The notes under the pieces: generated by a model
Databases searched by the model: none
The model's input: the letters and a program-made list of their open reading frames with translations, nothing else
Told to the model about the DNA's origin: nothing
Assembly (NCBI GenBank): GCA_965213625.1
Contig: CBDBZU010000004.1
Location: 1,824,001 to 1,888,000 of the forward strand
Direction of reading: 5' to 3'
Source: a bacterium
GTDB taxonomy: Bacteria > UBA8248
Length of the DNA: 64,000 bases
Program-made: the position numbers and the translations under genes
Shown here: positions 30,913-55,745 of the stretch, one piece after another
Position numbering within the stretch: position 1 is the stretch's first letter
Layout of the letters: the number at the start of each line of letters is the position of its first letter

Positions 30913-31160
30913 GGGGAGGACTCCTCTTCCCAGGAGAGAAAGTACACGGATACCGCGGAATGGTTCACGCGTCGAATGATTGGAACATATCAAATTCACG
31001 CGGCGGGCGGCAATAAAAAACGCGACGCTCTCGGGTACTTTTCGTATCGGAAGAGAGGTTTACTGGGGGTAATGCGGAATTGGGGCCTGGGGGAATGAAA
31101 CCGCCGCGAATTTTGGTATAATGGCGCATCTGTACTCACTAAACTCAAATGGAGTTCCGC

Positions 31161-38715: not shown

Positions 38716-38864
38716 ACTAAATCAATTGTTCAAGCTATTTACTCGATATCTGCTATTTCGGCTGTCGCATCGTTGTTAGAACACTCGATAATCCATCCCG
38801 CATATACAGCGCAAAGCATTGAATTTTAGATGATTCAATTCTTGCAGAATACATGCCCCACATT

Positions 38865-39944
<1,080 letters not shown>

Positions 39945-40075
39945 CTCAGATTCCCCTCTCTGCGAGAATCGCTATGGACACCCGCACGAAATGGCCTGTC
40001 CTGCATGAGGCCTGTAGGCGGGTCTTCACGGGCTCGATGGCTGAAATCAATTTTAGAAAAGGCACTGCATGCTCC

Positions 40076-40909
40076 TTATTCCTTGAGACCGGTGAGCGTG
40101 ATGCCGCGGACGAAGGCGCGCTGGAAGAACAGGAATATGAACGCCGCCGGGATCATCCCCATGACCGCAAGCGCCATGATTTCATGGTAGGCGGCTGAAT
40201 CGATGCCCTCCATCTGGGCGAGGCCGAGCGGGAAAGTCTTCAGGTTGTCGGTCGTCGCCACGATGAAGGGCCAGAGGAACTGGTCCCAGTTGTCGCGGAA
40301 GGCGAGCAGCGCCAGCGCGCCCAGTGCGGGCTTGCAGTTGGGGAGAATGATGCGCCAGAAGATGCCGAATTCGCTGCATCCGTCCATCCGCGCCGCCTCG
40401 ATGAGGGAGTCGGGAATGTCCCGGATGGACTGGCGCATGAGAAAGACGCCGAAAGCGTCCACCGCCAATGGCGCGATCAGCCCGCCATAGGTGTTGACGA
40501 GGCCCAGTTCCCGCACCACGAGGAAAGTGGGCACCAATACGATTTCCAGCGGGAGCATCAGCGTGCTCAGAATCAGGCGGAAGCACAACTCCCGGTGCGG
40601 GAAACGGAACTTGGCCAGACCGTAGCCCGCCAGCGTGCAGAAAACGAGGTTTCCTCCCATGACCGCAAAGGCCACGATGAAGCTGTTGAAGAAATAGACC
40701 CCAAAAGCCCCTTTGGCCAGGGAGTTCGGGTAGTTCACCCACTGGATGTCATCCGGTATCCATTGAATGGGGAGATCGAAAACCTCGATCCCCGTCTTGA
40801 TGGAAGAGGAGACCATCCAGAAATAGGGCAGGAGCATCACCCCGACTCCTGCGACTGTGAGGAGGGATATGAGCGCGCCTCCCAAGCGGAGCATCGTCTT
40901 GCGGCTCAT
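40076..40909 (-). CDS. carbohydrate ABC transporter permease (MalG-like)
   Basis: EAARMDG motif, WDQFLWP. Confidence 0.92.
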   Translation of the reverse strand: MSRKTMLRLGGALISLLTVAGVGVMLLPYFWMVSSSIKTGIEVFDLPIQWIPDDIQWVNYPNSLAKGAFGVYFFNSFIVAFAVMGGNLVFCTLAGYGLAKFRFPHRELCFRLILSTLMLPLEIVLVPTFLVVRELGLVNTYGGLIAPLAVDAFGVFLMRQSIRDIPDSLIEAARMDGCSEFGIFWRIILPNCKPALGALALLAFRDNWDQFLWPFIVATTDNLKTFPLGLAQMEGIDSAAYHEIMALAVMGMIPAAFIFLFFQRAFVRGITLTGLKE

Positions 40910-41847
40910 TCCATCCCTCCCCGGCGCAAGAGCCGCAACTGAATCAGGGTCAGGCCGAATAGAAAGACGAACAGCACCATCGAGGCTGCGGCGGCCTCTC
41001 CCATGCGGAAGAAGGCGAATCCCGTTTCGTAGATGAAGTAGGGAAGCACCCTTGTCGTCCCGTTGGGGCCGCCTTCGGTCATGACCAGAGGGTTCAGGAA
41101 CACCTTTACGGCCGAGAGGAGAGACAACACCATCACGAACGTTATCGTGGGGAGAAGCAGCGGAATCGTCACGTAAAAGAAGCGCTGGAACACACCCGCG
41201 CCGTCGATGATGGCCGCCTCATAGTATTCCTTCGGGATGGCCTGGAGGCCCGCGAGGTAAATCACGCCGAAGAGCGGGATGCCCCGCCAGATGCCGATGG
41301 CAATGAGGGCGGGAAGCGCCGACTCCTCCATCGAGAGCCAGTTGATGCGGCCGATTCCGAAGGTCTCCAGGATCGTGTTCACCAGGCCGTAGGGGTGGTA
41401 CATGAACTTCCACACCATGGCCACCACGATCTGCGACATCGCAATCGGGAAGAAATACGCCAGACGGATGACCGAACGCCCCGGCATTCGCCGATTCAGG
41501 AGGAGGGCCAGCGCCAGAGCGAAGAACCACTCCGGGATGGAGACGCCGAACATGTACTTGACCGAGACCCAGAATGATTGATGAAAGAGCGGGTTTTCCC
41601 AGAGGAGGTTGTAGTTCATGAGCCCGGTGAATACGGGCGGGCTCATGAGGTCGTAGCGGTAGAAGCTCAGCCGGAAGGCCTGGAGCATGGGGTAGAACTT
41701 GAAGATTATGAGATGAATGAGCGCAGGGAGAACGAAGAAGAACCCCGCCCAGCGGAGGTGGCTGTGGAGGGAGCGTTTCCCCCCTCCAGCCACCATCCGC
41801 CGAATCATCGACGGTAAAGTCCGGTCGACTCCGATCTCGCGACCCAT
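40906..41847 (-). CDS. carbohydrate ABC transporter permease (MalF-like)
   Basis: YLAGLQAIP..EAAIIDGA, TEGGP. Confidence 0.92.
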   Translation of the reverse strand: MGREIGVDRTLPSMIRRMVAGGGKRSLHSHLRWAGFFFVLPALIHLIIFKFYPMLQAFRLSFYRYDLMSPPVFTGLMNYNLLWENPLFHQSFWVSVKYMFGVSIPEWFFALALALLLNRRMPGRSVIRLAYFFPIAMSQIVVAMVWKFMYHPYGLVNTILETFGIGRINWLSMEESALPALIAIGIWRGIPLFGVIYLAGLQAIPKEYYEAAIIDGAGVFQRFFYVTIPLLLPTITFVMVLSLLSAVKVFLNPLVMTEGGPNGTTRVLPYFIYETGFAFFRMGEAAAASMVLFVFLFGLTLIQLRLLRRGGME

Positions 41848-41858
41848 CTGTTCTCCGC

Positions 41859-43142
41859 CTACTTCTTGGCCAGCGCCGCGTCGATCTCCTTACACGCCCT
41901 GTCGAGCGATTTCTTGGAGTCTTCCTTCTTCAGGACCACGCGCTCCATCGCCCGGTGAATCGCCTGGTTGAGTTCGAGAACTTTGTCGGAGCGCTGCAGA
42001 AAGCGCCCGTTCGAGATGTCCTTTACGAACACGTCCAGATAGCGTGTCTTGCGCGCATCTTCCATCCCGGGAAGGTTCAGGAAATTTTTGTCGGGATGGG
42101 GATAGGAAGTCCTCTCGTACCACGTCTTGGAGTCATTGACGACGTGTTTTAACACTTTATGCACTGCCCGCTGCTTCGCCTCGGAAATATGGGGATTCAC
42201 CGCGAGGGCGAAGCCGTAAATCGGCGTCACGGGCTTTTTGGGGTCCACCTGCGGGAAGGGCACCACCTTCACGTGTTTCATTACCTTGGGGCCGAATTGC
42301 GCCACACTGCCTGCGTGGGTGATGAACATGGAGACGCGCCCCTTGGGCAGATCGTCAGCCGGGAGGGCGTTGGTGCCCAGGCTTACGGTGGGGTCCGAAG
42401 CCTTGTAGTGGTGCGCAATCCTGGCCCGGACATTCATGGCCTTCACGCCCGCCTTGCTGTTGGCCAGGCACTTTTTCCCGGAGGCGTCGAGGACTTCTCC
42501 CCCGTATTGGCGAATCGTCGTGTTGAAGTACCACATCGTCCAGGTGGAGGAGTGCATGGCGAAATCGAAGCCCTCGCGCACCATCCTGCTGCCCCTCATT
42601 TTCACCAGTTTTTTCCCGATGCGGCCAACGTCTTCCCAGGTGCGCGGGTAATCCTTGTCCGGGTCCAGGCCCGCTTCCCGGAAGTGTTTCGTGTTAATGA
42701 AGAGGCTGAAGCCGGAAGCGATGGGAGGGAGAGCGTAAAGCTTCCCCTTGTGGATGTAGCCGTCCAGCGCCCCCGGTATGTAGGCCTTCTTCATATCCTC
42801 GAGGTCCTTGTAGCCCAGCCATTCGGGACGAATGGGCGCGAGGACGTTCTTGGCGGTGAAGCCGGGCAGCAGGAAGTCGATGAGCGTGAACATGTCGGCC
42901 GCCGAGCGCGTGGAAAGCGCGGCCGTGAGTTTTTGGAAGTAGGGGGTCATCGCGAAAAAATCATACTGCACTGGAGACTTGGGGTTCTTCTTGTTCCACT
43001 CCGCCACCAAATCCTTCGAGTAGTTGTTGTGCGGCGGGTTGCTGTGTTCCCACCAGGTGATCCTTTGCTGGGCGAAAGCCGGGCTCATGAGAAGCACCGT
43101 CAGCAATCCGACCAAAAGATGAGTCATGAGGAAGCGTTGCAT
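41859..43142 (-). CDS. carbohydrate ABC transporter extracellular solute-binding protein
   Basis: Signal peptide (AFA), GKLYALP, PRTWED; GGAGAGGAGG RBS. Confidence 0.88.
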   Translation of the reverse strand: MQRFLMTHLLVGLLTVLLMSPAFAQQRITWWEHSNPPHNNYSKDLVAEWNKKNPKSPVQYDFFAMTPYFQKLTAALSTRSAADMFTLIDFLLPGFTAKNVLAPIRPEWLGYKDLEDMKKAYIPGALDGYIHKGKLYALPPIASGFSLFINTKHFREAGLDPDKDYPRTWEDVGRIGKKLVKMRGSRMVREGFDFAMHSSTWTMWYFNTTIRQYGGEVLDASGKKCLANSKAGVKAMNVRARIAHHYKASDPTVSLGTNALPADDLPKGRVSMFITHAGSVAQFGPKVMKHVKVVPFPQVDPKKPVTPIYGFALAVNPHISEAKQRAVHKVLKHVVNDSKTWYERTSYPHPDKNFLNLPGMEDARKTRYLDVFVKDISNGRFLQRSDKVLELNQAIHRAMERVVLKKEDSKKSLDRACKEIDAALAKK

Positions 43143-43782
43143 GGTATTCCCTCCTCTCCCGGTCCGTCTGTTTTGATCAGCGGACCTATGAGGATTCCGG
43201 TACATCCTATGGATATAGGTGTGCCGGAATCGAATGAGCGCTGCAGAAGCACGTCACAGGATTCCACGACGACCACTATTTCCTTTGTAGCTTGAATGGA
43301 AACATCTTAGCACCTGGCCACTCCAGATCAAAATTCCTTTAACGATGGTCCGGTTCCGGCGCCGCACTCACGCTTGCGCGGCAGACCGGTCATCCCCACT
43401 TCCGCGAACCGTTTTCGCCTCGCCGGAAGCTCTCCTGTTTGCAGTTTTTTTAGAAAATTCTTAATCGCAATGTCGCGCCAAAAGGTGTGAAAAGTCGAAT
43501 TTCAATATTGTTGCAACATTCAAAAGTTGTCCCTATATTGAAAGTAGGAACAAGTTCATAAAGAGCGCGACACGCTGTGATTTTGATTTTGAAATACGCA
43601 GCTTTTACAGGGGTGTCGATACTGCTTGTCGCTGGCCTGGGCGCGGCCAACATCGAATAGAAGTTCGCGTTCCGTGACGACGCTTCGCAGATGAGGAGGG
43701 CATAAACCGATTCGAAATAGTTGATGGTTGATGATCGTATTGACATCAGCTAACGGAAGACTTCGCCAGGGGAGTTCTCGCA

Positions 43783-44532
43783 ATGTTGATCAAATCTATT
43801 TTACCTATTTTTTTGTCCCTGTCTTTTCTTCTTATCCTTATCCCAAACGCTTCCCTGGCGAAGTATAAAGTCGTATCCATCACAGGCGGCGGGACCATCA
43901 CCGGCAAGGTGAGCTTCAAGGGCAAGCCTCCCGCCCCCGTCAAATACATTATCACCAAGGACTATAACGCCTGCGGTAAGGGCCAGGTAACCCGCCAGGA
44001 GGTGGACGCGAAGGACGGCGCCCTCAGGGGCGTTGTCGTCTATCTCGACAAGGTCAGGAAGGGCAAGGGCTATCCCAAGGAAATCCAGAGCGCTGTGGTG
44101 GACCAGAAAAAGTGCGCCTATGTCCCCTACCTCCAGGTCGTCGCCGAGGGGGGCAAGGTCACCATCCTGAACAGCGACGCCGCCCATCACAACATCCACA
44201 CCTACGAGATCATCGGCCGGTCGAAACGCTCCATGTGGAACATCTCCCAGCCCAAGCAGCGGAAAAAAGTCGTCCGCAGGGCCAAGGTTCGGCGGAGCCC
44301 CATCGTCCGTATCGAGTGCGACGTGCACAACTGGATGAAGGGGTTTCTCTTCGTGGCCAGGAATCCCTATTACGCGCGCGTGAACGATGACGGCAGTTTT
44401 GAGATCAACGACGTTCCTCCGGGGAAATACTCCCTGCGGGCGTGGCACCCGGCCCTGGGGGTCAAGAAGAAAAAGATCGCCATAACCGCCGGGGGGAAGA
44501 AGGCCGCCGCCTTCACGTTTTCTTCGAAATAA
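43783..44532 (+). CDS. secreted protein with cupredoxin-like core and carboxypeptidase-regulatory-like domain
   Basis: Signal peptide; HNIH and CDVHNWM (C-x2-H-x2-M); DGSFEINDVPPGKY..WH. Confidence 0.75.
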   Translation: MLIKSILPIFLSLSFLLILIPNASLAKYKVVSITGGGTITGKVSFKGKPPAPVKYIITKDYNACGKGQVTRQEVDAKDGALRGVVVYLDKVRKGKGYPKEIQSAVVDQKKCAYVPYLQVVAEGGKVTILNSDAAHHNIHTYEIIGRSKRSMWNISQPKQRKKVVRRAKVRRSPIVRIECDVHNWMKGFLFVARNPYYARVNDDGSFEINDVPPGKYSLRAWHPALGVKKKKIAITAGGKKAAAFTFSSK

Positions 44533-44604
44533 GGCCGTATTTCCAGCATATATGGGACGGAAGTCTTACAGGAGATAGAACAGCCAGCTTGGGAGGAGGA
44601 AAGA

Positions 44605-45711
44605 ATGGAATTCGTTCACGCCATCCGGCGCCGGATACTCTGCGGAATCCTGCTGAGCGCCTGGGTTTTTCTCCCGGCGATAGGGTGGGGAGCTTCCCTC
44701 GCACCCCTTCCGGCGCCCAAGGCCCAGAAGCCCGCGCAGACCGAGTTGGGCCGGCATCTCTTCTTCGATCCCCGCATGTCGGGGGACGGGGGGATCAGCT
44801 GCGCCACCTGCCATCAGCCCGCAAAGGGCTGGGGTGACGGCCAGAGCCTCTCGACGGGCTATCCGGGGAGTAAGTATTTCAGAAACGCCCAGACGCTCCT
44901 GAACGCCGCCTACAACAAGCGGGTCTTCTGGGACGGCCGTCTGAGCGGGGCCGACTTGCCCACCCTCGTGCGGGACCACCTGACGGAAGCCCACTTCATG
45001 CTGGTGGACGGACGTCTTTTCCCCGAGCGGCTCAAGCAGGTTCCCGCTTACGTCAAGATGTTCAAGGAGGCCTATGGCGGGGAGCCTTCCTTTGGCGGCG
45101 CGCTCAAGGCCATCTCGGCGTTCCTGCATACCATCGCCTCGCGGAACGCGCCTTTCGATGCGTACCTGAAGGGCGATAAAAAGGCCCTTTCTGCCCAGGC
45201 CAAACAGGGACTCGCCCTGTTCCAGGGGAAGGCCGGTTGCGTCCAGTGCCATAACGGCGCCCTTTTGAGCGACGGCGGATTTCACGCGCTCGGCGTTCCC
45301 GAAAACGAGCAGATTTTCAAGGACCCGATGCGCCACATCACTTTCCGCCGGTTCAACAAGGTGCTCGGCGTCCCGAATTTCATGAACTTGAGAGCCGACG
45401 CGGGCCTCTACGTCGTGACGAAAGAAGAGAGCGACCGCGGCAAGTTCCGCACGCCGACGCTGCGCGAAGTCGCCCGGACGGCGCCCTACATGCACAACGG
45501 CGCTTTCGCCACACTGGAGGACGTCGTCGCCTTCTACAATAAGGGCGGCGGGAGCGGCCCCAACAAGAGCTCGCGGCTCAAGCCCCTGGGACTCTCCGCG
45601 GATGAGAGAAAGGCCCTGGTGGAGTTCATGAAGAGTCTCTCCGGTGCTGCGGTTTCCACGAATGAACCGAAAATTCCCGATTATGAACTCCGCAAACTCG
45701 GCGATAATTGA
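44605..45711 (+). CDS. diheme cytochrome c peroxidase/MauG family protein (IdrP-like)
   Basis: LFFDPRMSGDG, CATCH, FWDGR, CVQCH, FRTPTLR, PYMHNG. Confidence 0.9.
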   Translation: MEFVHAIRRRILCGILLSAWVFLPAIGWGASLAPLPAPKAQKPAQTELGRHLFFDPRMSGDGGISCATCHQPAKGWGDGQSLSTGYPGSKYFRNAQTLLNAAYNKRVFWDGRLSGADLPTLVRDHLTEAHFMLVDGRLFPERLKQVPAYVKMFKEAYGGEPSFGGALKAISAFLHTIASRNAPFDAYLKGDKKALSAQAKQGLALFQGKAGCVQCHNGALLSDGGFHALGVPENEQIFKDPMRHITFRRFNKVLGVPNFMNLRADAGLYVVTKEESDRGKFRTPTLREVARTAPYMHNGAFATLEDVVAFYNKGGGSGPNKSSRLKPLGLSADERKALVEFMKSLSGAAVSTNEPKIPDYELRKLGDN

Positions 45712-45721
45712 GGAGACGGCC

Positions 45722-46861
45722 ATGAACGCGCGAATGAAAAACTGCTTCCTGGGTTCCACGATGGCCGTCTGCTTCATCGCCGCCCTTCTGGTGGGAGGAG
45801 CGGACGCGGCCCGGAAGGGGAAATTCCCTCCGCTGGGGCCATTACCGCCTGTTCCGGTTCCGGCTGACAATCCCATGTCTCCGGCCAAGGTGGAGTTGGG
45901 CAAGCTGCTCTTTTTCGACGCCCGCCTGTCGGGGGACGCCAGCACGTCGTGCGCCTCTTGCCACAGCCCCGAAAACGGCTGGGGAGACGGCGGCGACCTG
46001 AGCCGGGGCTACCCGGGCACGCAGCACTGGCGGAACTCCCAGACGATACTCAATTCTGCCTATTACGCAAAACTGTTCTGGGCAGGCGAGGTTCCGAGTC
46101 TGGAAGCCCAGGCCAAGAGCGCCGCCACGGGCAACGTGGCCGGAAACGGCGACACCATGATGATGGAGGAGCGTCTGCGCCAGGTTCCCGAATACGTCAA
46201 GCGCTTCCGTGAGGTGTTCGGATCCGCCTGGCCGACCATCGACGACGCATGGCGGGCCATCTCGGCCTACGAGCGCACACTGATTTCGAAGGCGGAGGAC
46301 GTGCCGTTCGACCGCTTCATGAAAGGAGACAAGAAGGCGCTCTCGGAAAGCGCTCTGCGCGGGCTGGCTCTTTTCCGCGGAAAGGCGCAGTGCATCCAGT
46401 GCCACAACGGCCCCCTCCTTTCGGATGAGGACTATCACAACATCGGCGTCCCCAAGAACCCCGCGTTCGAGGAAGACCCCTTGCGGCAGATAACGCTTCG
46501 CTTTCAGCACGTGATACGAGGCGTTCCCGAATCCGTGTACCGCAAGGCGGATCGGGATTTGGGCCTCTACTACACCACCAAGCGGGAGGCCGATAAGGGG
46601 AGGTTCCGCACCCCCAGCCTGCGGGAGCTGAATTACACGGCGCCTTTCATGCACAACGGCGCATTTTTCGAGTTGGATGAGGTCATCGATTTTTATGACG
46701 AAGGAGGAGGGGAGGACGCGAACAAGAGTCCACTTCTCAAGAAATTGGGGCTCTCGGACGAGGAGAAGGAAGACCTGCTGGCCTTTCTGGAATCGCTCTC
46801 GAGCGATAAGCCTTTGCTCGTTCAGCCCCCTGAACTGCCGCCGTACGCGGCCATGCCGTAA
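45722..46861 (+). CDS. second diheme cytochrome c peroxidase/MauG family protein (IdrP-like)
   Basis: LFFDARLSGD, CASCH, CIQCH, FRTPSLR, PFMHNG; paralogue of the upstream gene. Confidence 0.9.
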   Translation: MNARMKNCFLGSTMAVCFIAALLVGGADAARKGKFPPLGPLPPVPVPADNPMSPAKVELGKLLFFDARLSGDASTSCASCHSPENGWGDGGDLSRGYPGTQHWRNSQTILNSAYYAKLFWAGEVPSLEAQAKSAATGNVAGNGDTMMMEERLRQVPEYVKRFREVFGSAWPTIDDAWRAISAYERTLISKAEDVPFDRFMKGDKKALSESALRGLALFRGKAQCIQCHNGPLLSDEDYHNIGVPKNPAFEEDPLRQITLRFQHVIRGVPESVYRKADRDLGLYYTTKREADKGRFRTPSLRELNYTAPFMHNGAFFELDEVIDFYDEGGGEDANKSPLLKKLGLSDEEKEDLLAFLESLSSDKPLLVQPPELPPYAAMP

Positions 46862-46871
46862 GGAGGAATCC

Positions 46872-47414
46872 ATGACTCAGGAAGCCAAGGAAACCCGGCC
46901 TTGTATCTCGCGGCGCGCCTTTCTCCTGGCCGGCGGAACCGCCATGAGCGTGGTGCTGGTCGAGGGCATCCCCGGCCTGGCCGGAGCGGCCCTGCAAAGG
47001 GCGGCGTATCCCCGCCGGAAAATCGGCAAGCTCAGCGCCCTCAAAGTCGATACGCCTCAGTATTTCCAGTATCCCTGGAAGGACGTCTTCTCGGGGTGCA
47101 TGCTGGTCAAGCTGGGCGTAACGGCCGGCGGCGGCGTCGGCCCCAAGAGAGACGTCGTGGCGTTCAGTACCCTGTGCACCCACATGGGCGGCCCTCTGCA
47201 GGGGACATACAACGGGCAGTACAAGGCCATCGGCCCGTGCCCGTTCCATCTGACGACCTTCGACCTCATGAAGCACGGCATGGTCGGGGCGGGGCAAGCC
47301 ACGGAAAGCCTCCCCCAGGTCGTACTGGAGACCCGTGGAGACGACATCTACGCGATCGGAATGATGGGGCTGCTATACGGTTATCACTCGAATCTTGCGC
47401 CGGCACAGCGCTGA
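46872..47414 (+). CDS. idrB: Tat-exported Rieske small subunit (IdrB/AioB-like)
   Basis: SRRAFLL Tat motif; CTHMGG and CPFH ligands; GQATESLPQV; AGGAGG RBS. Confidence 0.8.
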   Translation: MTQEAKETRPCISRRAFLLAGGTAMSVVLVEGIPGLAGAALQRAAYPRRKIGKLSALKVDTPQYFQYPWKDVFSGCMLVKLGVTAGGGVGPKRDVVAFSTLCTHMGGPLQGTYNGQYKAIGPCPFHLTTFDLMKHGMVGAGQATESLPQVVLETRGDDIYAIGMMGLLYGYHSNLAPAQR

Positions 47415-47426
47415 GGAGGACGCATC

Positions 47427-50093
47427 ATGGCAGGAAAGGTAACGAACTACTACCTTGCGGAAGACAGTGTCCCCCTCCCCCCGCGAGACGCTGAGGTTTT
47501 CACCACGGCGTGCGACTATTGCATCGTGGGCTGCGGGTACAAGGTCTACCGCTGGCCAATCGGGCGCGAGGGCGGGCCCAAGGCCGGCCAGAACGCCCTG
47601 GGCGTCGATTTTCCCACCGCCATCATGAGCGGCGGCTGGGTCAGCCCGAACATGCACAACATCATCATGGTGAACGGTCGCCCACACCACGTCATCGTCA
47701 TGCCGGACAAGGATGCGAAGGTCGTGAACGTCGGGGGAAACCACTCCATCCGGGGCGGCGTCCTGGCGAAGAAACTCTATAATCCCAACGAACCCTCACA
47801 GGACCGCCTGCGCCAGCCGATGATGCGCGTTCGAGGAACCTTACAGGAGGTCTCGTGGGATACGGCTATGGGCGTCTTGGCGGGCATCTCGAAACACGTC
47901 CTCGACAAGTTCGGCGAGCACGCCTGGGCCATGAAGACGTATTCCTACCAGTATTTCGAAAATACCTATGCCATCTCCAAGCTCGCCTTCCGCGCCATCG
48001 GGACGCCGGCCTACGCCCCGCATGACAAGCCGGGTCCCGGCCCGGACACGCCTGGGATTGATTTTTCCGGCATCAATCCATTCAGCGCCTCCTATGACGA
48101 CTGGGGAGAGGCCGAGGTCATCTTCTTCTCGGGCGTCGACCCGTGGGAGACCAAGTCGGTGCTGTTCACCTCCTGGATCATGGGCGGAAAAACGCCGAAC
48201 AAAAAGCTGGTCTTCGCTCTTCCGCGTAAGACCTCGGGCGTGGCCTACGGCGAGAAGCGCGGCGGTCTCTTCCTGCCCGTCATTCCGGGAACGGATACGG
48301 TCCTCCAATTGGCCATCATCCGCCTGATCCTCGAGAACGGCTGGGAGGACAAGGAGTTTATCGCGAGAAAGGTGTCGAACAAGTGGGAGATCGGCTCCGG
48401 CATGGGACGCGGCACCCGCAACACGCCGTGGCAGTGGGTCACGACCTGGGGCAAGTACGGGACCGACTTCGAGGGCTATAAAAAGTGGATTCTGAGCTAT
48501 CCCTACGCCGAACTGGAGCGAGCCGCGAAGATCACGGGCGTGCCGGCGGCGGACATTCGAAAGACAGCCGAAATCCTGGCCAAGCCCAAGCCCGACGGAA
48601 CGCGCAAGAAAACCTCGTTCATGCTCGAGAAGGGCAATTACTGGTGCAACAGTTTCGGGAACACGGCTTCCTTCGCGGCCCTCGGGCTGGTCTGCGGCGC
48701 CGGGTCGCGGCCCGGTCGCGTGATCTCCCGAGGCGGGGGGCATCAGCGCGGCTGGATGGGCGCGGCCGGTTACCCGAGGAGCCTGTCTCCGGAGAAGGCG
48801 CCGGGACGCCGCAAGAAGGAAATCGATCTCGACCGCTGGGTCGTAGACGGTCACGTCCGCTTCGCATGGGTCATCGGAACCACCTGGTGCCAGGCCATGG
48901 CGGCGTCTCAGGAGTTGATGGACGTTTTCCAGCGATTGACTCGACACAACCCCCACCAGATCGAGAGTTTTGACGTCGATTCGGCGGTGGACGCCTTAAA
49001 GCGGCGCGTGGACGCCGGCGGCATGGTCGTGGCCCACCAGGACATCTACCCGGTTGCTCCCATCGGAACCGAGTATTCGGATCTGATTCTTCCGGCCGCC
49101 ACCTGGGGTGAGGAAGACTTCACCCGGTGCAACGGCGAGCGCCGCCTCAGGCTCTACAGCAAGTTCGCCGACCCCCCCGGAGAGGCCCGGCCCGACTGGT
49201 GGATCATCGCCGCGTTCGCGAGGAAGATGGGCTTCAAGGGCTTCGACTGGAAGGACAGCAACCAGATATTCGAGGAGGCGGCCCGCTTCGGACGCAAAGG
49301 AGTACTCAACTACCATCCGCTCGTCGTGAAGGCCAAGCGCGAGGGGAAACGGGGCCACGAGTTGCTCCGCGAATACGGGACCGGCGGCATCCAGACCCCC
49401 ATTCGCATGGTCAAGGGCAAACTCGTCGGGACGAAGCGTCTCCACGACGAAACCCTCGAACTGGGAACCCCCGAAGGCCCCACCATGCACAGGAAATGGC
49501 TCACCTCCTTCGGGACCCAGAGCGGCAAGGCGGTTTTGCTGAAAAGCTACTGGGAGGATTTCAAGGATTTCTACGATAGGGTCACCCCGCAGGGAGACGA
49601 GTTGTGGGTGACGAACGGCCGCATCAACGAGCTGTGGCAATCCGGCTACGACGACAAGCGGCGACCCTACATCATGCAGCGTTGGCCCCAGCAGTTCTTG
49701 GAGATTCACCCGAAAGACGCCGGCGCCCGGGGCATCGAATCAGGAGACCTGGTGGCCATCGAGAACGACGACCTGCTCGTGCAGACGGGAGGGTACATCG
49801 GCGTCGACGGCAAGGAGCAGACCTTCACCGAGCTCATGAAGGCCGGGCGGATCAAGAAGAGCAAGGGTAGCTTCACCGCCGTGGCTATGGTCACCGACGC
49901 GGTTCGGGAGGGTGTCACCTTCGCCTATTTCGGCTTTCCCGAGAACCCGGCCAACTCGGTGGTTCACCGGGTGCCGGACCCCCTGACCAACCGCTACCGC
50001 TACAAGCTGGGCAAGGGGAAGTTGAAGAAGATTGGAGAATCTCCGCACAAGCATTCGCTGACGAGCCTCAGCTTCGTCCCCCGGACGCTTTAA
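47427..50093 (+). CDS. idrA: molybdopterin oxidoreductase large subunit, AioA-like; putative iodate reductase IdrA
   Basis: VPLPP..CDYCIVGCGY ([3Fe-4S] C-x2-C-x3-C) and HSIRGG; EKGNYW, GGHQRG, NGERRLRLY; lacks the AioA HNRPAYNSE motif; adjacent Rieske and two Ccp genes. Confidence 0.78.
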   Translation: MAGKVTNYYLAEDSVPLPPRDAEVFTTACDYCIVGCGYKVYRWPIGREGGPKAGQNALGVDFPTAIMSGGWVSPNMHNIIMVNGRPHHVIVMPDKDAKVVNVGGNHSIRGGVLAKKLYNPNEPSQDRLRQPMMRVRGTLQEVSWDTAMGVLAGISKHVLDKFGEHAWAMKTYSYQYFENTYAISKLAFRAIGTPAYAPHDKPGPGPDTPGIDFSGINPFSASYDDWGEAEVIFFSGVDPWETKSVLFTSWIMGGKTPNKKLVFALPRKTSGVAYGEKRGGLFLPVIPGTDTVLQLAIIRLILENGWEDKEFIARKVSNKWEIGSGMGRGTRNTPWQWVTTWGKYGTDFEGYKKWILSYPYAELERAAKITGVPAADIRKTAEILAKPKPDGTRKKTSFMLEKGNYWCNSFGNTASFAALGLVCGAGSRPGRVISRGGGHQRGWMGAAGYPRSLSPEKAPGRRKKEIDLDRWVVDGHVRFAWVIGTTWCQAMAASQELMDVFQRLTRHNPHQIESFDVDSAVDALKRRVDAGGMVVAHQDIYPVAPIGTEYSDLILPAATWGEEDFTRCNGERRLRLYSKFADPPGEARPDWWIIAAFARKMGFKGFDWKDSNQIFEEAARFGRKGVLNYHPLVVKAKREGKRGHELLREYGTGGIQTPIRMVKGKLVGTKRLHDETLELGTPEGPTMHRKWLTSFGTQSGKAVLLKSYWEDFKDFYDRVTPQGDELWVTNGRINELWQSGYDDKRRPYIMQRWPQQFLEIHPKDAGARGIESGDLVAIENDDLLVQTGGYIGVDGKEQTFTELMKAGRIKKSKGSFTAVAMVTDAVREGVTFAYFGFPENPANSVVHRVPDPLTNRYRYKLGKGKLKKIGESPHKHSLTSLSFVPRTL

Positions 50094-50136
50094 TGGAGAT
50101 GGAGGTTTATAGGTCGTAGGCCATAAAGGAGGTTGT

Positions 50137-50523
50137 ATGAGAACGTTTCGGTCGAGAAGATTTTTCATCTGTGCAGGCCCGGTGCTCGCAGTGGCGCTCT
50201 TTTCTTGGTCCTCTGGTGACGGGGCCGCCCAGCAAAAAGGCGACGTTGCGGCCGGCAAGGTCAAATACCTGCAGCTTTGCGCCTCCTGCCACGGCGCATC
50301 GGGCAAGGGAGACGGCGTCGCAGCCAAGGCGCTCAGCCCGAAGCCGAGAAATCACACGGACGGCAAATACATGAAGACCATAACGGATGAATATATCGCC
50401 AAGATTACCAAACTGGGCGGGGTCGCGGTAGGGAAATCGCCGTTGATGCCACCCTGGGGCGGTGTTCTTTCGGACGCCGACCTCCAGAATCTGGTCGCAT
50501 TCATGCGCTCGCTGGCGAAATAG
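50137..50523 (+). CDS. periplasmic monoheme cytochrome c
   Basis: Signal peptide, CASCH, KGDG..PKPRN, distal Met in MPPW. Confidence 0.9.
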   Translation: MRTFRSRRFFICAGPVLAVALFSWSSGDGAAQQKGDVAAGKVKYLQLCASCHGASGKGDGVAAKALSPKPRNHTDGKYMKTITDEYIAKITKLGGVAVGKSPLMPPWGGVLSDADLQNLVAFMRSLAK

Positions 50524-50533
50524 GATCGCGTAC

Positions 50534-52585
50534 ATGGACTCAGGGAATCGGGAGGCCCTACCTCCTGTGCGCTCCTTTCGGGTCGAGTTGCCCGGCCACG
50601 ACCACTGGCGGAAAACGATTTGCTGTCAGGATGCGTGTCCTGTACACACGGACGCGCGGGGTTACGTCACGGCCATCTCCGAGGAGGACTTCGAGCGCGC
50701 CTACATCATCGCCCGGGGACCGAACCCCTTCGCGTCGGTTTGCGGGCGCGTCTGTGCGGCGCCATGCGAAGCGGCCTGCCGCCGCGGCAACATCGATTCG
50801 CCGGTGGCCATCCGGGCGCTCAAGCGATTCGTGACGGAGCGCTACGGGGTAGAGGCCGATTTGGCCTCCGGCAAGGGGGAATCCGCCTTCTCGCAGCGCA
50901 GCCTCAGGAGCATGCGGGACCTCCGCTTCCAGCCCTCAACGCGCACCATCAACGATTTCTCGGTGCTCGAAGCGGCCCGCCGCAAGCCCGGGGGGGTGGA
51001 GACGGCGGGGCGAAAGGCCGCCGTCGTCGGTTCGGGCGTGGCGGGGTTGACCTGCGCGCACGATCTTGCCCTGCTCGGCTACGACGTGAGCGTTTTCGAA
51101 AAACAGGAAGTCCCCGGAGGCATGCTCATGCTCGGGGTTCCCGAATACCGCCTTCCGCGCGATCTCGTTCAGGCCGAGATTCAGGCCATCCTCAGCCTGG
51201 GCGTGGAGCTGCGGGTGAACAAGGCCATTGGGCGGGACTTCGACCTCTCCACCCTTCGCAAGGAAGGCTTCGAAGCGGTGTTCATCGCCATCGGCGCGCA
51301 TGTGAGCCGTTCTCTTCCCATGGAAGGCCAGGACGCGGACGGTGTTTTCCGGGCCGTCGAATTTCTGCTGAACGTGAATCTGAACTTCCGCGTCGAGTTG
51401 GGCGAGCGCGTAGTTGTGATCGGCGGGGGAAACGTGGCCATGGACGCCGCTCGGGTCGCCGCCCGGGTGGCCGGTGAGGCGGATTCCGCCGCTAGAACTG
51501 CCGATCAAACGGAAGACGCAGTTCTCATGCGCGAGATGATGGATGTGGCCCGCGAGGCGATGCGCGTGGGAGCGAGGAAAGTCCACGTCATCTGCCTGGA
51601 ATCTCGCGACGAGATGCCTGCTGCGGACTTCGAGATCGAAGAGGCGCTCGAAGAGGGAATCGATCTCGAGCCCCGGGTGGGGCCAGTCCGCATCGTGGAG
51701 AAAGATGGCCGGGTGGTCGGGCTGGAAGTCCACACGTGCACCCGCGTCTTCAATGAGGAGGGCCGCTTCAACCCGGAATTCGAGCCGGATACCAAGCGCG
51801 TGATTCCGTGCGATTCGGTTATCGTGGCCGTCGGCCAGGCTTCGGACCTTTCCTGGATCAAGGATGAGGACGGCGTCGAGACGACGCCGCGCGGGACCAT
51901 TCGCGTCGATCCCGAAACCTTGGCCACGACCGCTCCCGGCATCTACGCGGGCGGAGACGTCGCCATGGGTCCCCGGATATTCATCGAAGGGGTGGAAAAC
52001 GGTCACCGGGCCGCTCGCTCCATACACACCTTTCTGTCAGGCGGTCAGGCGGGCGTCCAGACGCATCTCCAGTGGGCCTCCATCGAACCCTTGCAGCAGG
52101 CACTACTTCAGGAGTCGGGGGAGGGATATCCCCTTCCCATCGTCAATCCCGGATACCAGAAAGTGTCTCGGCGAAACCCGGACGCCCTGCCCATCGAGCG
52201 CAGAATCGGCGTCGCCGAGGTGGAACTGGGTTATTCGCCCGCAGATGCGGTTGGGCAGGGAATGCGGTGTCTGCGCTGCAGCGCGAATCCGATCTTCGAT
52301 GGCGCCAAATGCATCCTCTGCGGCGGTTGTGTGGACGTCTGCCCGTCGCGCTGCCTGCGAATGGTTCCCCTGGAAGCATTACAGGGAGGAGAGGATCTGG
52401 CGGCTCTGGTGCAGGCCCGATTTGGAACGTCCGCCGGGGGCGCCGGAGAGTCGGGGATGGGCGCAGCCATGATCATGGATCCGGACAAGTGCATCCGTTG
52501 TTCGCTCTGCGCCCAGCGCTGTCCCACGGGCGCCGTTACCATCGAGAATTTTTCTTTCCAGGAAGAGTGGGTTGAGCTTGGATGA
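50534..52585 (+). CDS. FAD/NAD(P)-dependent Fe-S oxidoreductase (GltD/NfnL/DsrL-like) with C-terminal ferredoxin domain
   Basis: CQDACP, CGRVCAAPCEAAC, GSGVAGL, GGGNVAMD, RCLRC, CILCGGCVDVCP, CIRCSLCAQRCP; no signal peptide. Confidence 0.88.
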   Translation: MDSGNREALPPVRSFRVELPGHDHWRKTICCQDACPVHTDARGYVTAISEEDFERAYIIARGPNPFASVCGRVCAAPCEAACRRGNIDSPVAIRALKRFVTERYGVEADLASGKGESAFSQRSLRSMRDLRFQPSTRTINDFSVLEAARRKPGGVETAGRKAAVVGSGVAGLTCAHDLALLGYDVSVFEKQEVPGGMLMLGVPEYRLPRDLVQAEIQAILSLGVELRVNKAIGRDFDLSTLRKEGFEAVFIAIGAHVSRSLPMEGQDADGVFRAVEFLLNVNLNFRVELGERVVVIGGGNVAMDAARVAARVAGEADSAARTADQTEDAVLMREMMDVAREAMRVGARKVHVICLESRDEMPAADFEIEEALEEGIDLEPRVGPVRIVEKDGRVVGLEVHTCTRVFNEEGRFNPEFEPDTKRVIPCDSVIVAVGQASDLSWIKDEDGVETTPRGTIRVDPETLATTAPGIYAGGDVAMGPRIFIEGVENGHRAARSIHTFLSGGQAGVQTHLQWASIEPLQQALLQESGEGYPLPIVNPGYQKVSRRNPDALPIERRIGVAEVELGYSPADAVGQGMRCLRCSANPIFDGAKCILCGGCVDVCPSRCLRMVPLEALQGGEDLAALVQARFGTSAGGAGESGMGAAMIMDPDKCIRCSLCAQRCPTGAVTIENFSFQEEWVELG

Positions 52586-53078
52586 CATGACTGCGGGCAT
52601 GGATGAACAGACCCCCCGGCGGCGTATGCTTCTGGGCCTCGGCTGGGTTTCTTTTCTGATTTCCCTGCTGGGCCCGGTTCTCGCCAACGTCCGCTTCTTG
52701 TTCCCCAACGTCGTTTATGAGGGTGAGTCGGTTCTGAAACTCGACGCCCTGGAGAAATACACCGTGGGGTCCATCACGTTTTTCGCCAACAAGAAAATCG
52801 TTTTGTTTCGTGAAAAAGACGGGTTCCGCGCCTGCACGGCCGTCTGTCCTCATCTTCGCTGCGTGATTACCCCCTTTGTCGGGGCGCCGGGCGCGTCTCC
52901 GGATATTTTGAGGGCCCGGTGCCCGTGCCACGGCAGCACTTTCGATGGGCGGGGACAGGTGCTCGGAGGGCCTGCGCCGCGCGGACTCGACTTCTTCCTC
53001 GTGACGAAATCGCCGGATGGCCGCGTCGTCGTCGATACGCGCAAAGTCGTTGCCCCGTCCGAGCATTTCAAGCTCTGA
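52572..53078 (+). CDS. Rieske iron-sulfur subunit of a Rieske/cytochrome b complex
   Basis: RRRMLL plus TM anchor; CPHLRC, CPCHGSTF, GPAPRGL. Confidence 0.9.
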   Translation: MSLDDMTAGMDEQTPRRRMLLGLGWVSFLISLLGPVLANVRFLFPNVVYEGESVLKLDALEKYTVGSITFFANKKIVLFREKDGFRACTAVCPHLRCVITPFVGAPGASPDILRARCPCHGSTFDGRGQVLGGPAPRGLDFFLVTKSPDGRVVVDTRKVVAPSEHFKL

Positions 53079-53087
53079 GCCGTCATC

Positions 53088-54584
53088 ATGGTCACCGAAT
53101 CACCGCAGAAATCAGGCCGCAGTCAAGCCGTATCGTGGCTTAGGGACAACCGCGTCGTCCGTTCGATTTTCCGCCGCGGTTATCCGGACAACGATCTGGA
53201 TCGCGCGGCCGTCATGTTCTCGAATTTCTTCCTGCACGTCCTTCCCGCGCGAACGCACGTTCACAGCCTGAAACCCACCTATACCTGGGGACTCGGCATC
53301 ATCTCCCTGTTCCTCTTCGTGATCCTTCTGGGCACCGGCGCTTTGCTCATGTTCTTCTACGTCCCCTCGACCGAGCGCGCCTACAGCGACATGAAGGATC
53401 TGGAATTCGTCGTCTCCTACGGCGTCGTCCTGCGGAATCTCCATCGCTGGGCCGCTCACGCGATGGTCGCCGTCGTCTTCTTGCACATGTGCCGTGTGTT
53501 CTATACGGCCAGCTACAAGGCGCCCCGCGAGTTCAACTGGGTCATCGGGGTGCTCCTCTGGGGGGCGACCCTGATGATGAGCTTCACGGGCTACCTCCTC
53601 CCCTGGGATCAGCTCGCCTTTTGGGCCATCACCGTCGGGTCGAGCATCGCCAGCTACCCGCCCCTGGTTGGAGAATCCATCCGCACGCTGATGCTCGGGG
53701 GCGATACGGTGGGGCAGAACGCGCTGATCCGGTTCTACGTCATGCACGTCATGCTCCTGCCGGGCATCATGATGATACTCATGGGCGTCCATTTCTGGCG
53801 GATACGCAAAGACGGAGGCCTTTCCCGTCCACCCACGCCGCCCTCTGAGGCAGCCCGGGGCGAGACGGCGGCTTTTTCGCCGCACAAGACGTACATGCTC
53901 GTGGAACTGGCCGAGGGCAAGACGCCCACGGTGGATACGCAGGCCCCGGAAGAAGAGGTTATGAGCTGGCCTCACACGGTGTTCAGGATGCTGGTCGTCT
54001 TCGTGGGAGTCGTGGCCGTTCTCTCCGTTGTCGCCTACTTTTTCGATGCGCCCCTGGAAGAGCTGGCCAACCCGGACCATCCGCCAAATCCCGCCAAGGC
54101 GCCCTGGTACTTTCTCGGACTTCAGGAAATCGTGAGCTATTCCGCTCTGGCGGGAGGCGTCATCGTTCCCGCCGCCGCGATTATCGGCCTCATGAGCATT
54201 CCCTACATCGACCGCAACCCCGAGGGCCAGGGAAACTGGTTCACCTCGGGCCAGGGCCGGCGGATTACGCTCTGGTCGGTCCTGGTGATCATTCCGGTCG
54301 TCCTCGTCCTGACGTATCTGAACGAGCACTACGCGGTGCGGAAACTGGTTCCGGGCGCCTCGCAGATATGGGTCGACCTTTTGAATCCGGGGACTATACT
54401 GATCCTCCTCTTCGCGGTCGGTTCGCTCTACATCTGGCGGCGGACGGGGTCGAGCCGGATGGGGGCCCTGGCCCTCTATTCTTATTTTCTGACGTCTTAT
54501 CTGATTTACACGTTCATCGGGCTTTATTTCCGCGGCGCCAACTGGGCCTGGATATGGCCGTGGCAGGCGGCGGGTCTGCACTGA
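53088..54584 (+). CDS. cytochrome b (unsplit, C-terminally extended) of a Rieske/cyt b complex
   Basis: [30 protein letters not shown], Qo-site motif KAPWYF, PYIDRNP. Confidence 0.92.
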
Positions 54585-54596
54585 GGCGGATGACGG

Positions 54597-55409
54597 ATGG
54601 CGAATTCAAATCACAATGATTCCCATGTGCCGTTCGGGTGGGTGGTCGCCTTCGCCGCCCTGAGCGTGTGCGCGGCCCTGTTTTTTCTGCTCTCCGTCTG
54701 GAAGGACTATGACCGCGAATGGCGGGGCTACCAGCGGACGTTCCGCGAATTGCTCGTCGAAAGGGCCGGAACCGAAGAAGAGCGCAAATCAGTTCTGGCG
54801 AGCGGGGATCAGTTCGAGCAAATCATCGTGGCCAATGGCGAGCGCGTGGACAGGTGCGTCATGTGCCACCGGGGGGTCGAGCACCCGGCGTTCAAGGATG
54901 CCGACCAGCCTTTCGCCAGGCATCCCTCCATTCCGCTGCATCCCTTCGAGCAATTCGGCTGCACCGTGTGCCACCAGGGCCAGGGCAGGGCGACGACCGT
55001 TCAGGACGCCCACGGAGAAGTCCCGTTCTGGGAAGAGCCGCTGCTGCGGGGCGGGTTCATTCAGGCCAGCTGCGGTCCGTGCCACGCAGGCGCCCTGAAA
55101 GATGCCCCTCTCATCCAGAGGGGAAAGCTACTTTATCTGATGAACGGCTGTCTCGCCTGCCACAAAATCAGAGGCGCCGGCGGGGTCATCGGGCCTGACC
55201 TCACGTTTGCGGGCGAACGCCGGAAGGACCCGAAGTGGCACATCGAACACTTCAAGTTTCCGCAAAAGGTTTCTCCCGGCTCCGCCATGCCCGCCTACGG
55301 CCATTTGAAGCCGGAGGATCTCGAAGCGCTGACGGTCTACATGCTGAGCCTCCGCAGGGCGCCTTCCGCCCTGGCGCTGGCTGCTCCCATAACTCCCAAA
55401 AAGAAATAG
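54597..55409 (+). CDS. membrane-anchored tetraheme cytochrome c
   Basis: N-terminal TM; CVMCH, CTVCH, CGPCH, CLACH; GPDL and SAMP motifs. Confidence 0.88.
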   Translation: MANSNHNDSHVPFGWVVAFAALSVCAALFFLLSVWKDYDREWRGYQRTFRELLVERAGTEEERKSVLASGDQFEQIIVANGERVDRCVMCHRGVEHPAFKDADQPFARHPSIPLHPFEQFGCTVCHQGQGRATTVQDAHGEVPFWEEPLLRGGFIQASCGPCHAGALKDAPLIQRGKLLYLMNGCLACHKIRGAGGVIGPDLTFAGERRKDPKWHIEHFKFPQKVSPGSAMPAYGHLKPEDLEALTVYMLSLRRAPSALALAAPITPKKK

Positions 55410-55434
55410 AAGCGGCATCGCTTTCGGGAACGCA

Positions 55435-55474
55435 ATTTATCGAAAAACCTCGTAAATTTATCTGAATTTATCGA
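55435..55474. repeat. three ATTTATCGA-type repeats
   Basis: ATTTATCGA at 55435, ATTTATCTG at 55456, ATTTATCGA at 55466; reverse complement of the motif at 25905-25954. Confidence 0.55.
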
Positions 55475-55745
55475 ATTTTTCAGATTTAATCCGACCGAAG
55501 AGGGAGGATGAAACCCGTCCCGATCGAGCCCGGGAACTGCCCCGCCATATCCGAGCCGCCGTTGCGGCGCGCACCGCTGCCGGGAACGCCTCGGTTGATG
55601 AGGCGAATCCCCGGCGATTGGCTCTCAAAGGCCTTAGTTTTTGCGAGAGAACGCTAAAAATGTTACTAATGTATTCAATCTGACATTTTGTTTGCCCCTT
55701 GATAAGGGCATCTTTCTTTTTATAACGAGGTAGGGATTCGATTTC

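Follow-up and report, generated by a model that had tools for sequence, protein, structure and literature searches.

The DNA analysed here is a stretch of 64,000 nucleotides (hereafter the window) from contig CBDBZU010000004.1 of an uncultured marine bacterium. It carries a run of ten genes, all on the plus strand at positions 43783-55409, in which a gene set of the iodate-reductase type (idr) is followed directly by the genes of a flavoprotein-coupled Rieske/cytochrome b complex resembling those of anammox bacteria. On balance, we lean towards the view that the ten genes form one inherited, probably co-transcribed unit, in which a dedicated complex of the anammox type would feed electrons to the reductase set. 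The genes, numbered g1-g10, are separated by 72, 10, 10, 12, 43, 10, 1, 9 and 12 bp (lengths of 1-72 bp that depend on the start codons chosen for g3 and g8), in agreement with the original prediction of a same-strand run with gaps below 75 bp. The nine CxxCH motifs claimed for the run were also recovered in the translations (2 + 2 + 1 + 4 = 9). Gene identities were read on the translations from Pfam and NCBIfam profile matches and from PDB profile searches. For comparison we used 23 species genomes of the genus, including the window's own genome (G000, 4.15 Mb), and 51 genomes of the phylum.

On profile matches and gene order, g2-g5 are identified as an idrP-idrP-idrB-idrA set. g2 (44605-45711) and g3 (45722-46861) each encode a di-haem cytochrome c peroxidase (Ccp) of the IdrP type, with two CxxCH motifs and PF03150 (CCP_MauG) matches of 148 and 150 bits, respectively. 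g4 (46872-47414) encodes a Tat-exported Rieske small subunit of the IdrB type, recognised by the Tat motif SRRAFLL, the Rieske ligands CTH...CPFH and a TIGR02694 (arsenite_ox_S) score of 119 bits against a cut-off of 96. g5 (47427-50093) encodes an IdrA-type molybdopterin large subunit of 888 aa, scoring 126 bits with PF18465 and 457 with TIGR02693 (cut-off 359), in which an N-terminal Rieske_3 3Fe-4S domain with the motif CDYCIVGC is followed by the molybdopterin domains. The identity of g5 was 61% to IdrA of Denitromonas iodatirespirans IR-12 (L071) and 59% to IdrA of Azonexus hydrophilus NCP973 (L130). Among the best 80 of at least 555 IdrA relatives in the genome collection, ccp and idrB stood beside idrA at 78 loci, while the remaining two loci start at a contig end; this peroxidase synteny has served as a diagnostic for idr (PMC8692401). 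A FastTree phylogeny of g5 (81 rows, 5 partial rows having been dropped) separated a 78-row Idr-like clade from three plasmid AioA sequences by branches of 0.6 and 0.67 with a support of 100. Within the former, the clade of the window (9 rows) was sister to rows from Methylomirabilota and Rokubacteria, and the resulting group of 14 rows was sister (support 91) to a 40-row proteobacterial clade containing the IdrA of IR-12 and NCP973. The claim that an AioAB-like pair accompanied by two Ccp genes marks an Idr system was therefore borne out, both by the placement in the IdrA clade and by the synteny at 78/80 loci. Deeply branching idr members from Rokubacteria, Lindowbacteria, NC10 and Planctomycetaceae are among those already reported in PMC8692401. 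In the PDB search, the closest solved relatives of g5 were AioA/AroA chains (284 bits), and no solved IdrA structure was found among its PDB relatives. The NCBI product name did not discriminate between the two families, since the Azonexus IdrA bears the same name as arsenite oxidase. One further locus in the tree (L025 3-4277) has ccp-idrB-idrA genes 57-68% identical to those of the window on a contig titled as a metagenome-assembled genome (MAG) of a Methanobacteriota archaeon. Its row groups with Lindowbacteria and Planctomycetota, and the locus may have been misbinned or may have reached an archaeon by transfer.

The five genes g6-g10 are classified, from their profile and structure-database matches, as an anammox-type flavoprotein Rieske/cytochrome b module. 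g6 (50137-50523) encodes a soluble monohaem cytochrome c (PF13442). g7 (50534-52585) encodes an NfnB/GltD-like NAD(P)-binding Fe-S flavoprotein of 683 aa with Fer4_20, Pyr_redox_2 and Fer4_7 matches and an additional 2x[4Fe-4S] ferredoxin domain at the C-terminus. g8 (52587-53078, with an alternative TTG start at 52572) encodes a membrane-anchored Rieske protein (PF00355). g9 (53088-54584) encodes a cytochrome b6-like protein fused to a subunit IV-like part (498 aa; PF00033 with 142 bits, PF00032), and g10 (54597-55409) a tetrahaem cytochrome c with four CxxCH motifs, matches to cytochrome c Pfam families and an N-terminal membrane anchor, a hydrophobic stretch at about residues 14-34. The top PDB matches of g8 were 9rk4 (E 1e-14) and 9rk3 (E 1.6e-9), the first of 67 and ahead of the Rieske proteins of b6f and bc1 complexes. 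According to Table 1 of PMC12954380, these are Kuste4569 and Kustd1480, the Rieske proteins of two Kuenenia complexes, both of which bear a putative NAD(P) oxidoreductase (PMC12954380). Similarly, the best PDB match of g7 was NfnABC (9bov/9bp5, 269 bits), which the same paper names as a structural homologue of the anammox oxidoreductase subunit (PMC12954380). Since g7 has no signal peptide, its product should lie at the membrane's cytoplasmic face.

In g9, the haem-ligand histidines H119/H133 and H220/H235 are invariant in 17 aligned rows with b6-type spacing, and the APWY motif is present. Its N-terminal extension (window 53088-53270, residues 1-60) has a conserved RSIFRxGYP...NFFLH motif. 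The ligand of haem cN presumably lies near the N-terminus of cytochrome b, and residues 1-134 of g9 contain no cysteine, so a covalently bound haem cN is unlikely in this protein. In the anammox models, the cN haems are placed as in b6f (PMC12954380). The AlphaFold3 models in the same work show an extra haem b ligand near the N-terminus (His43/His62). H50 of g9, which lies in the extension and is kept in at least 90% of the 17 rows, may match it by analogy, the positional equivalence being a guess. A complex prediction for g7 residues 500-683 with g9 gave an ipSAE of 0.49 (0.49, 0.08 and 0.57 in separate runs) against 0.00 for the best of three controls. That mark was reached by 116/157 solved complexes and 2/215 mismatched pairs, and passes up to 0.60 are more often wrong than right unless the pairing is likely beforehand. 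Contacts agreed between the runs to at least 38%, at a partner pLDDT of 71 or higher. The models give weak support to a binding of the C-terminal domain of g7 to g9. The order flavoprotein-Rieske-cytochrome b was also found in 49-51 of 80 metagenomic flavoprotein loci, most of the others being short contigs. All genus members have, elsewhere in the genome, a plain split set of Rieske, b6 and subunit IV genes, and the module is thus an extra complex. Cytochrome b paralogues of 40-48% identity in idr-less genomes (L099, L100, L101) were considered and set aside because they belong to other Rieske/cytochrome b sets that have no GltD-like flavoprotein; the Mo enzyme near one such set is an NAD-linked formate dehydrogenase and no Idr relative. 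In G007 (L099 4547-9415), about 8 kb separate an NAD-linked formate dehydrogenase from a different Rieske/cytochrome b set, and in G054 (L125 13311-17353) such an enzyme adjoins an Rrf2 gene and a Rieske/cytochrome b module. These formate dehydrogenases consist of a NuoF-like subunit and a Mo subunit of 912/913 aa.

The two modules meet at the 43-bp gap after idrA. This corrects a placement of the seam at 50523/50534, between g6 and g7. By descent, g6 heads the Rieske/cytochrome b module: it shares 65% identity with the leading gene of the stand-alone modules of sister genera, against 29% over 80 residues with the Azonexus cytochrome c encoded after idrA. A Shine-Dalgarno sequence, AAGGAGG, precedes the ATG of g6. 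No terminator was found in the gaps between idrA, g6 and g7; the scan itself returned 18 sites against 12.9 +/- 4.0 in shuffled sequence, which is not above chance. Upstream of the run, the intergenic region 43206..43782 (GC 0.50 versus about 0.61 around it) is a putative promoter region, divergent from an ABC-transporter operon, and contains one minus-strand ORF of 98 aa that has no Pfam match. The promoter scan gave a single sigma-70-like match at 43511-43539, no more than expected by chance. RNA-library contigs about 90% identical to the window covered 29/30 bins of 43400-55700; they came from four runs of three studies, three runs being on record as metatranscriptomes and one guessed to be such. 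Two of these contigs bridge idrA, g6 and g7 (X21 record 20, 48947-51770; X22 record 29, 49603-50714), which weakly suggests a single transcript. The original prediction had named independent transcription of the two halves and misassembly of their junction as grounds for abandoning it. The bridging contigs speak, if weakly, against the former, and the latter is excluded because the join recurs in the single-contig assemblies G002, G008, G011, G020 and G022. No RNA-library contig of the four runs covered 43400-43810, which says nothing about the start of the transcript, as the flanks of the relatives differ there. Several DNA and RNA runs with related sequence are labelled as sponge metagenome; the runs with small word shares (X5-X18, X23, X24) were left out of any statement on habitat.

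The distribution of the genes speaks for one inherited unit. Within the genus, idrA, a flavoprotein orthologue of at least 88% identity and a cytochrome b orthologue of at least 90% identity were present in the same 15/23 genomes, and the other eight genomes had none of them. The three genes were adjacent on one contig in 13 of these 15, several of them single-contig assemblies, which rules out a misassembly of the join; in G018 and G005 the run was interrupted by contig ends. The adjacency of the two halves in other genomes, on which the original prediction had been made to depend, was also found beyond the genus. A genome of another family of the class (G029) carries all ten genes in unchanged order, at 63-82% identity. 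In another genus of the window's family (G050; L212, G050:C223, 3-11709), the modules are adjacent in the opposite order, that is, flavoprotein (truncated at the start of the contig), Rieske, cytochrome b and tetrahaem cytochrome c, then 540 bp, then g1-ccp-ccp-idrB-idrA; no match to a g6-like cytochrome c with more than 40% coverage was found there. Adjacency in the two opposite orders thus extends over three genera and two families, and the occurrence of two gene orders in different genera argues for selection on the linkage. In the phylum, idrA was found in 18/51 genomes (counting the fragment in G005), all 18 of which have the flavoprotein; the flavoprotein module occurred without idrA in 2/51 (G062 and G054) and neither was found in 31/51. 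Furthermore, the ten genes stay together while their flanks vary, with at least four downstream contexts in seven genus genomes.

These observations have to be weighed against a rival explanation, namely that the neighbourhood involves no dedicated coupling, the flavoprotein module being a general quinol:cytochrome c oxidoreductase that supplies all periplasmic carriers, beside which idr happened to land in a variable part of the genome and with which it is neither regulated nor used jointly. We regard this as unlikely but worth weighing. A stand-alone form of the five-gene module, with the genes for cytochrome c, flavoprotein, Rieske protein, cytochrome b and tetrahaem cytochrome c, occurs in G062, G054 and G060 (L124 6149-12357, L125 6902-12863 and L126 9038-15017). 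It is 50-70% identical to that of the window and follows its own Rrf2 regulator gene, with idr not adjacent. No Rrf2 gene accompanies the fused ten-gene form. Elsewhere, idr is modelled to use the housekeeping bc1 complex (PMC8692401), and none of 41 idr loci outside the phylum with at least 5 kb downstream of idrA had a flavoprotein and cytochrome b beside idr. The original prediction was right in this respect, in that it held ordinary idr clusters to have no quinol-oxidising complex of their own. What speaks for a unit is the adjacency in two opposite orders, the persistence of the ten genes amid changing flanks, the count of 0/18 for idr-bearing genomes of the phylum that have no flavoprotein, and the seam itself, which is 43 bp long, has a Shine-Dalgarno sequence, occurs in a form that has no Rrf2 gene and is bridged by RNA-library contigs.

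Several results weigh against our favoured reading of one dedicated unit. Two genomes (G062, G054) have the flavoprotein module and no idrA. In G060, g1-ccp-ccp-idrB-idrA lies on a different contig from the module, with other genes around each, and in G050 the 540-bp gap makes separate promoters possible. Outside the phylum, the joined form was not found: besides the 0/41 loci, a g7 homologue at E <= 1e-60 was present in none of five other deep idr genomes (Rokubacteria, two Methylomirabilota, Lindowbacteria and Planctomycetales), and ccp or idrB stood beside the flavoprotein in none of 80 metagenomic loci with g7 relatives of 40-59% identity. The co-occurrence counts are not independent either, coming mostly from one subclade, and correspond to about four lineages with both modules instead of 18 events. 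By the identity of one marker protein, aldehyde dehydrogenase, the idr-bearing genus members form the group of 93-98% identity and the group of 84-90% is free of idr; the former group also holds the idr-less genomes G014 and G017 (79% complete). G000 has, as noted for its genus, a plain Rieske/b6/subunit IV set, and in addition one haem-copper oxidase. The RNA-library contigs are no proof of one transcript and may include DNA carry-over, the predicted contact of g7 with g9 is weak, and the nearest assayed enzymes lie outside the window's IdrA subclade, at 59-61% identity.

This last distance also bears on the substrate. Judged by homology, g5 would act on iodate. The same architecture could instead serve chlorate, bromate, selenate or a similar compound, which we consider improbable, though the assayed IdrA proteins are distant, the subclade of the window, together with its Methylomirabilota and Rokubacteria relatives, falls beside and not within the proteobacterial sister clade, to which every validated enzyme in the tree belongs, and g9 resembles ExtP (266 bits) and ExtQ (74 bits) of a selenite/tellurite-reduction operon with scores below the NCBIfam cut-offs. 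Iodate is favoured by the intact diagnostic synteny ccp-ccp-idrB-idrA and by the iodate reduction reported for expressed idr clusters from a SAR324 MAG and an alphaproteobacterial MAG, which indicates that the function extends across distant hosts (PMC13455634).

A reverse direction of electron flow was also weighed, in which the AioA-like enzyme would oxidise arsenite or another reductant and the Rieske/cytochrome b module would lift the electrons uphill to quinone or NAD(P)+, giving a lithotrophic entry. The enzyme family includes true oxidases (AioAB), with which g5 and g4 share the fold family and the subunit pair. They pass the NCBIfam arsenite-oxidase models TIGR02693 and TIGR02694, respectively; moreover, anammox complexes have been proposed to make NAD(P)H (PMC12954380). 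Even so, we hold this direction to be very improbable. g5 is only 28-31% identical to AioA (plasmid sequences from an arsenite-oxidising isolate, Thermus and Hydrogenophaga) and lies outside the AioA clade across a long branch. The two peroxidase genes of the window are absent from the three aio loci compared (NT-25, Thermus and Hydrogenophaga), in agreement with PMC8692401. In addition, no RuBisCO was found when G000 was searched and the window is rich in TRAP, TctA and ABC transporters of organic solutes, so that nothing evident calls for reducing power from lithotrophy.

The same features, together with the single haem-copper oxidase and the lack of an NXR/Nar-type (type II DMSO-reductase) match over the cut-off in G000 (best 138 bits versus 985), lead us to read the host from its gene content as an aerobic or facultative heterotroph. 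There is a proposal that iodate can serve as the oxidant when nitrite is oxidised (PMC11373643). Such an iodate-dependent oxidation of nitrite under anaerobic conditions, which the NCBI label 'Nitrospinota' of some relatives might bring to mind, was dropped as an explanation because neither an NXR-type match over the cut-off nor RuBisCO was found.

The gene at the head of the run, g1 (43783-44532), encodes a periplasmic protein with a signal peptide, a cupredoxin-like domain with a conserved ligand set and a C-terminal beta-sandwich of the CarboxypepD_reg type. The label 'cupredoxin-like' given to it in the original prediction rests on three observations. H136, C179, H182 and M185 are invariant in 18/18 aligned homologues, the g1 profile has a weak PDB match to the blue copper protein 5fc9 (E 0.0037), and a homologue (L186:9319-9981) passes the Pfam Copper-bind model with 32.6 bits against a cut-off of 21.2; on the other hand, the window's own g1 has no match to that model. 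Homologues of g1 head 16/60 of the idr loci outside the lineage that have enough upstream flank, and a g1-like gene lies directly upstream of the flavoprotein gene in 32/80 metagenomic loci (of L132-L211). Since the family accompanies each module separately elsewhere, it offers itself as a candidate for what links the two, and the g1 cupredoxin may be a carrier shared by the reductase set and the Rieske/cytochrome b module. At one of the metagenomic loci, L186, a 739-aa multi-cytochrome takes the role of the c subunit, and another cytochrome c is encoded after it.

If the ten genes do form one dedicated unit, the following working can be proposed. The flavoprotein module would replace the housekeeping bc1 step. 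Quinol would be oxidised at the Qo site of g9, and the high-potential electron would pass from the Rieske protein g8 to the tetrahaem cytochrome g10, then to the cytochrome g6 and/or the cupredoxin g1, to IdrB and finally to IdrA, which would reduce iodate or a similar high-potential oxyanion. The same carriers would feed the two peroxidases, which would remove reactive by-products. The low-potential electron would travel through the b haems of g9 to the cytoplasmic flavoprotein g7, which might either reduce NAD(P)+, as proposed for anammox, or feed in electrons from NAD(P)H; in the latter case the block would make up a complete chain from NAD(P)H to the oxyanion. We regard the two directions of g7 as about equally probable, with the input of NAD(P)H somewhat favoured by a host that looks like an aerobic heterotroph. 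Iodate is a high-potential acceptor, and its pull would be even stronger than that available in anammox. For the anammox complexes, reduction of NAD(P)+ by the second electron, with the favourable c-side reaction as the driving force, has been proposed and is so far unproven (PMC12954380). A hard-wired bifurcation of quinol, in which IdrAB and iodate draw one electron while g7 makes NAD(P)H with the other, is accordingly conceivable here, but we would put no more than a small chance on it. Were it true, the proposed NAD(P)H-forming mechanism of Rieske/cytochrome b complexes would for the first time outside anammox be tied genetically to a defined and easily supplied sink, and the opposite gene orders in sister genera would reflect selection for the co-expression of sink and bifurcator.

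The genes on either side appear unrelated to the ten. Upstream lies an ABC sugar transporter on the opposite strand; downstream are a luciferase-like monooxygenase, an M24 peptidase and a TRAP transporter. In the idr-less genomes G019, G007, G009 and G001, a DUF362 gene is separated from the luciferase-like gene by 1-5.5 kb, whereas in the window they are 17 kb apart and flank both the cluster and the ABC transporter. The genes at 38853-43205 (a protein of 445 aa that has no Pfam match and a three-gene ABC sugar-transporter operon) are also missing from these four genomes, together with the ten-gene cluster, so the block that is present or absent extends over about 38.8-55.4 kb; it may reflect two events. 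Among 47 flank ORFs of four genus loci and G029, no integrase or transposase family was matched at E <= 1e-10. In G004, a 67-residue frame (G004:C2:626467-626667) is 96% identical to IdrA residues 822-888 and lies about 374 kb from the intact cluster, and this fragment of the IdrA end may be a relic of an earlier location. In one relative an ankyrin-repeat protein is encoded in the flank of the cluster (L017 21787-22551). The window also encodes a GDSL-lipase autotransporter of 643 aa on the minus strand (29068-30999); in G014 its immediate neighbour is the luciferase-like gene found after the cluster in the window, a sign of rearrangement in G014.

In the literature searched, which left most subscription journals outside, we found no account of a Rieske/cytochrome b complex linked with idr, and the terms bc1, cytochrome b and Rieske did not occur in the main text of PMC13455634. 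The original prediction had called the system possibly undescribed. This stands for the join of the two modules; it does not stand for the modules themselves, nor for the general idea that a Mo reductase can share a gene cluster with such a complex, all of which were described before. What appears new, from the gene content, is the pairing of two known modules. Iodate respiration has been modelled as a four-gene island plugged into the bc1 complex of its host, in which quinol passes electrons to the housekeeping bc1, then to cytochrome c551 and on to IdrAB, while the peroxidases remove oxidants (PMC8692401). Here the island has a private quinol-oxidising complex, suggesting that electron supply is limiting or specialised in some hosts. 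A version of the NAD(P)-coupling complex that is tied to an expressible soluble enzyme and a cheap substrate would also make the question of that coupling testable. The finding also bears on annotation, since in public records all these genes go under the names of arsenite oxidase or of a subunit of glutamate synthase or formate dehydrogenase.

Compared with the IdrABP1P2 island of Pseudomonas sp. SCT, IR-12 and NCP973, the window's cluster is alike in the order ccp-ccp-idrB-idrA, in the Tat-exported Rieske small subunit and the 3Fe-4S motif, and in belonging to the same clade apart from AioA. It differs in the five-gene flavoprotein Rieske/cytochrome b module after idrA and the cupredoxin gene at the head. 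In Azonexus, moreover, sigma-54 two-component genes lie upstream of idr, of which there are none at the window's locus, and the cytochrome c after idrA is of a different type from g6, as its low identity shows. An arrangement comparable in principle is found in haloarchaea, in which the genes for a periplasm-facing Nar stand together with those for a Rieske/cytochrome b complex (as cited in PMC4683180). Compared by description only, the two are alike in that an outward-facing Mo oxyanion reductase is clustered with a dedicated Rieske/cytochrome b quinol oxidase, and they differ in the family of the Mo enzyme (Nar versus Aio/Idr) and in the flavoprotein and peroxidases, which that description does not mention. 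The closest relatives of the second module are Kuste4569-4574 and Kustd1480-1485 of Kuenenia, likewise operons with a Rieske protein, a b6-type cytochrome b with a subunit IV part, a multihaem cytochrome c and an NfnB/GltD-like flavoprotein. This likeness is judged from gene content and from the PDB matches of g7 and g8. In Kuste4569-4574 the Rieske/cytochrome b complex is likewise coupled to a terminal reductase encoded alongside it, the periplasmic Kuste4574 (PMC12954380). In the window, however, a Mo enzyme of the iodate-reductase type replaces the HAO-like octahaem protein as terminal enzyme, the c subunit is a tetrahaem protein, cytochrome b is fused to subunit IV, a covalent haem cN is unlikely, and the host is no anammox bacterium and looks like an aerobic heterotroph.

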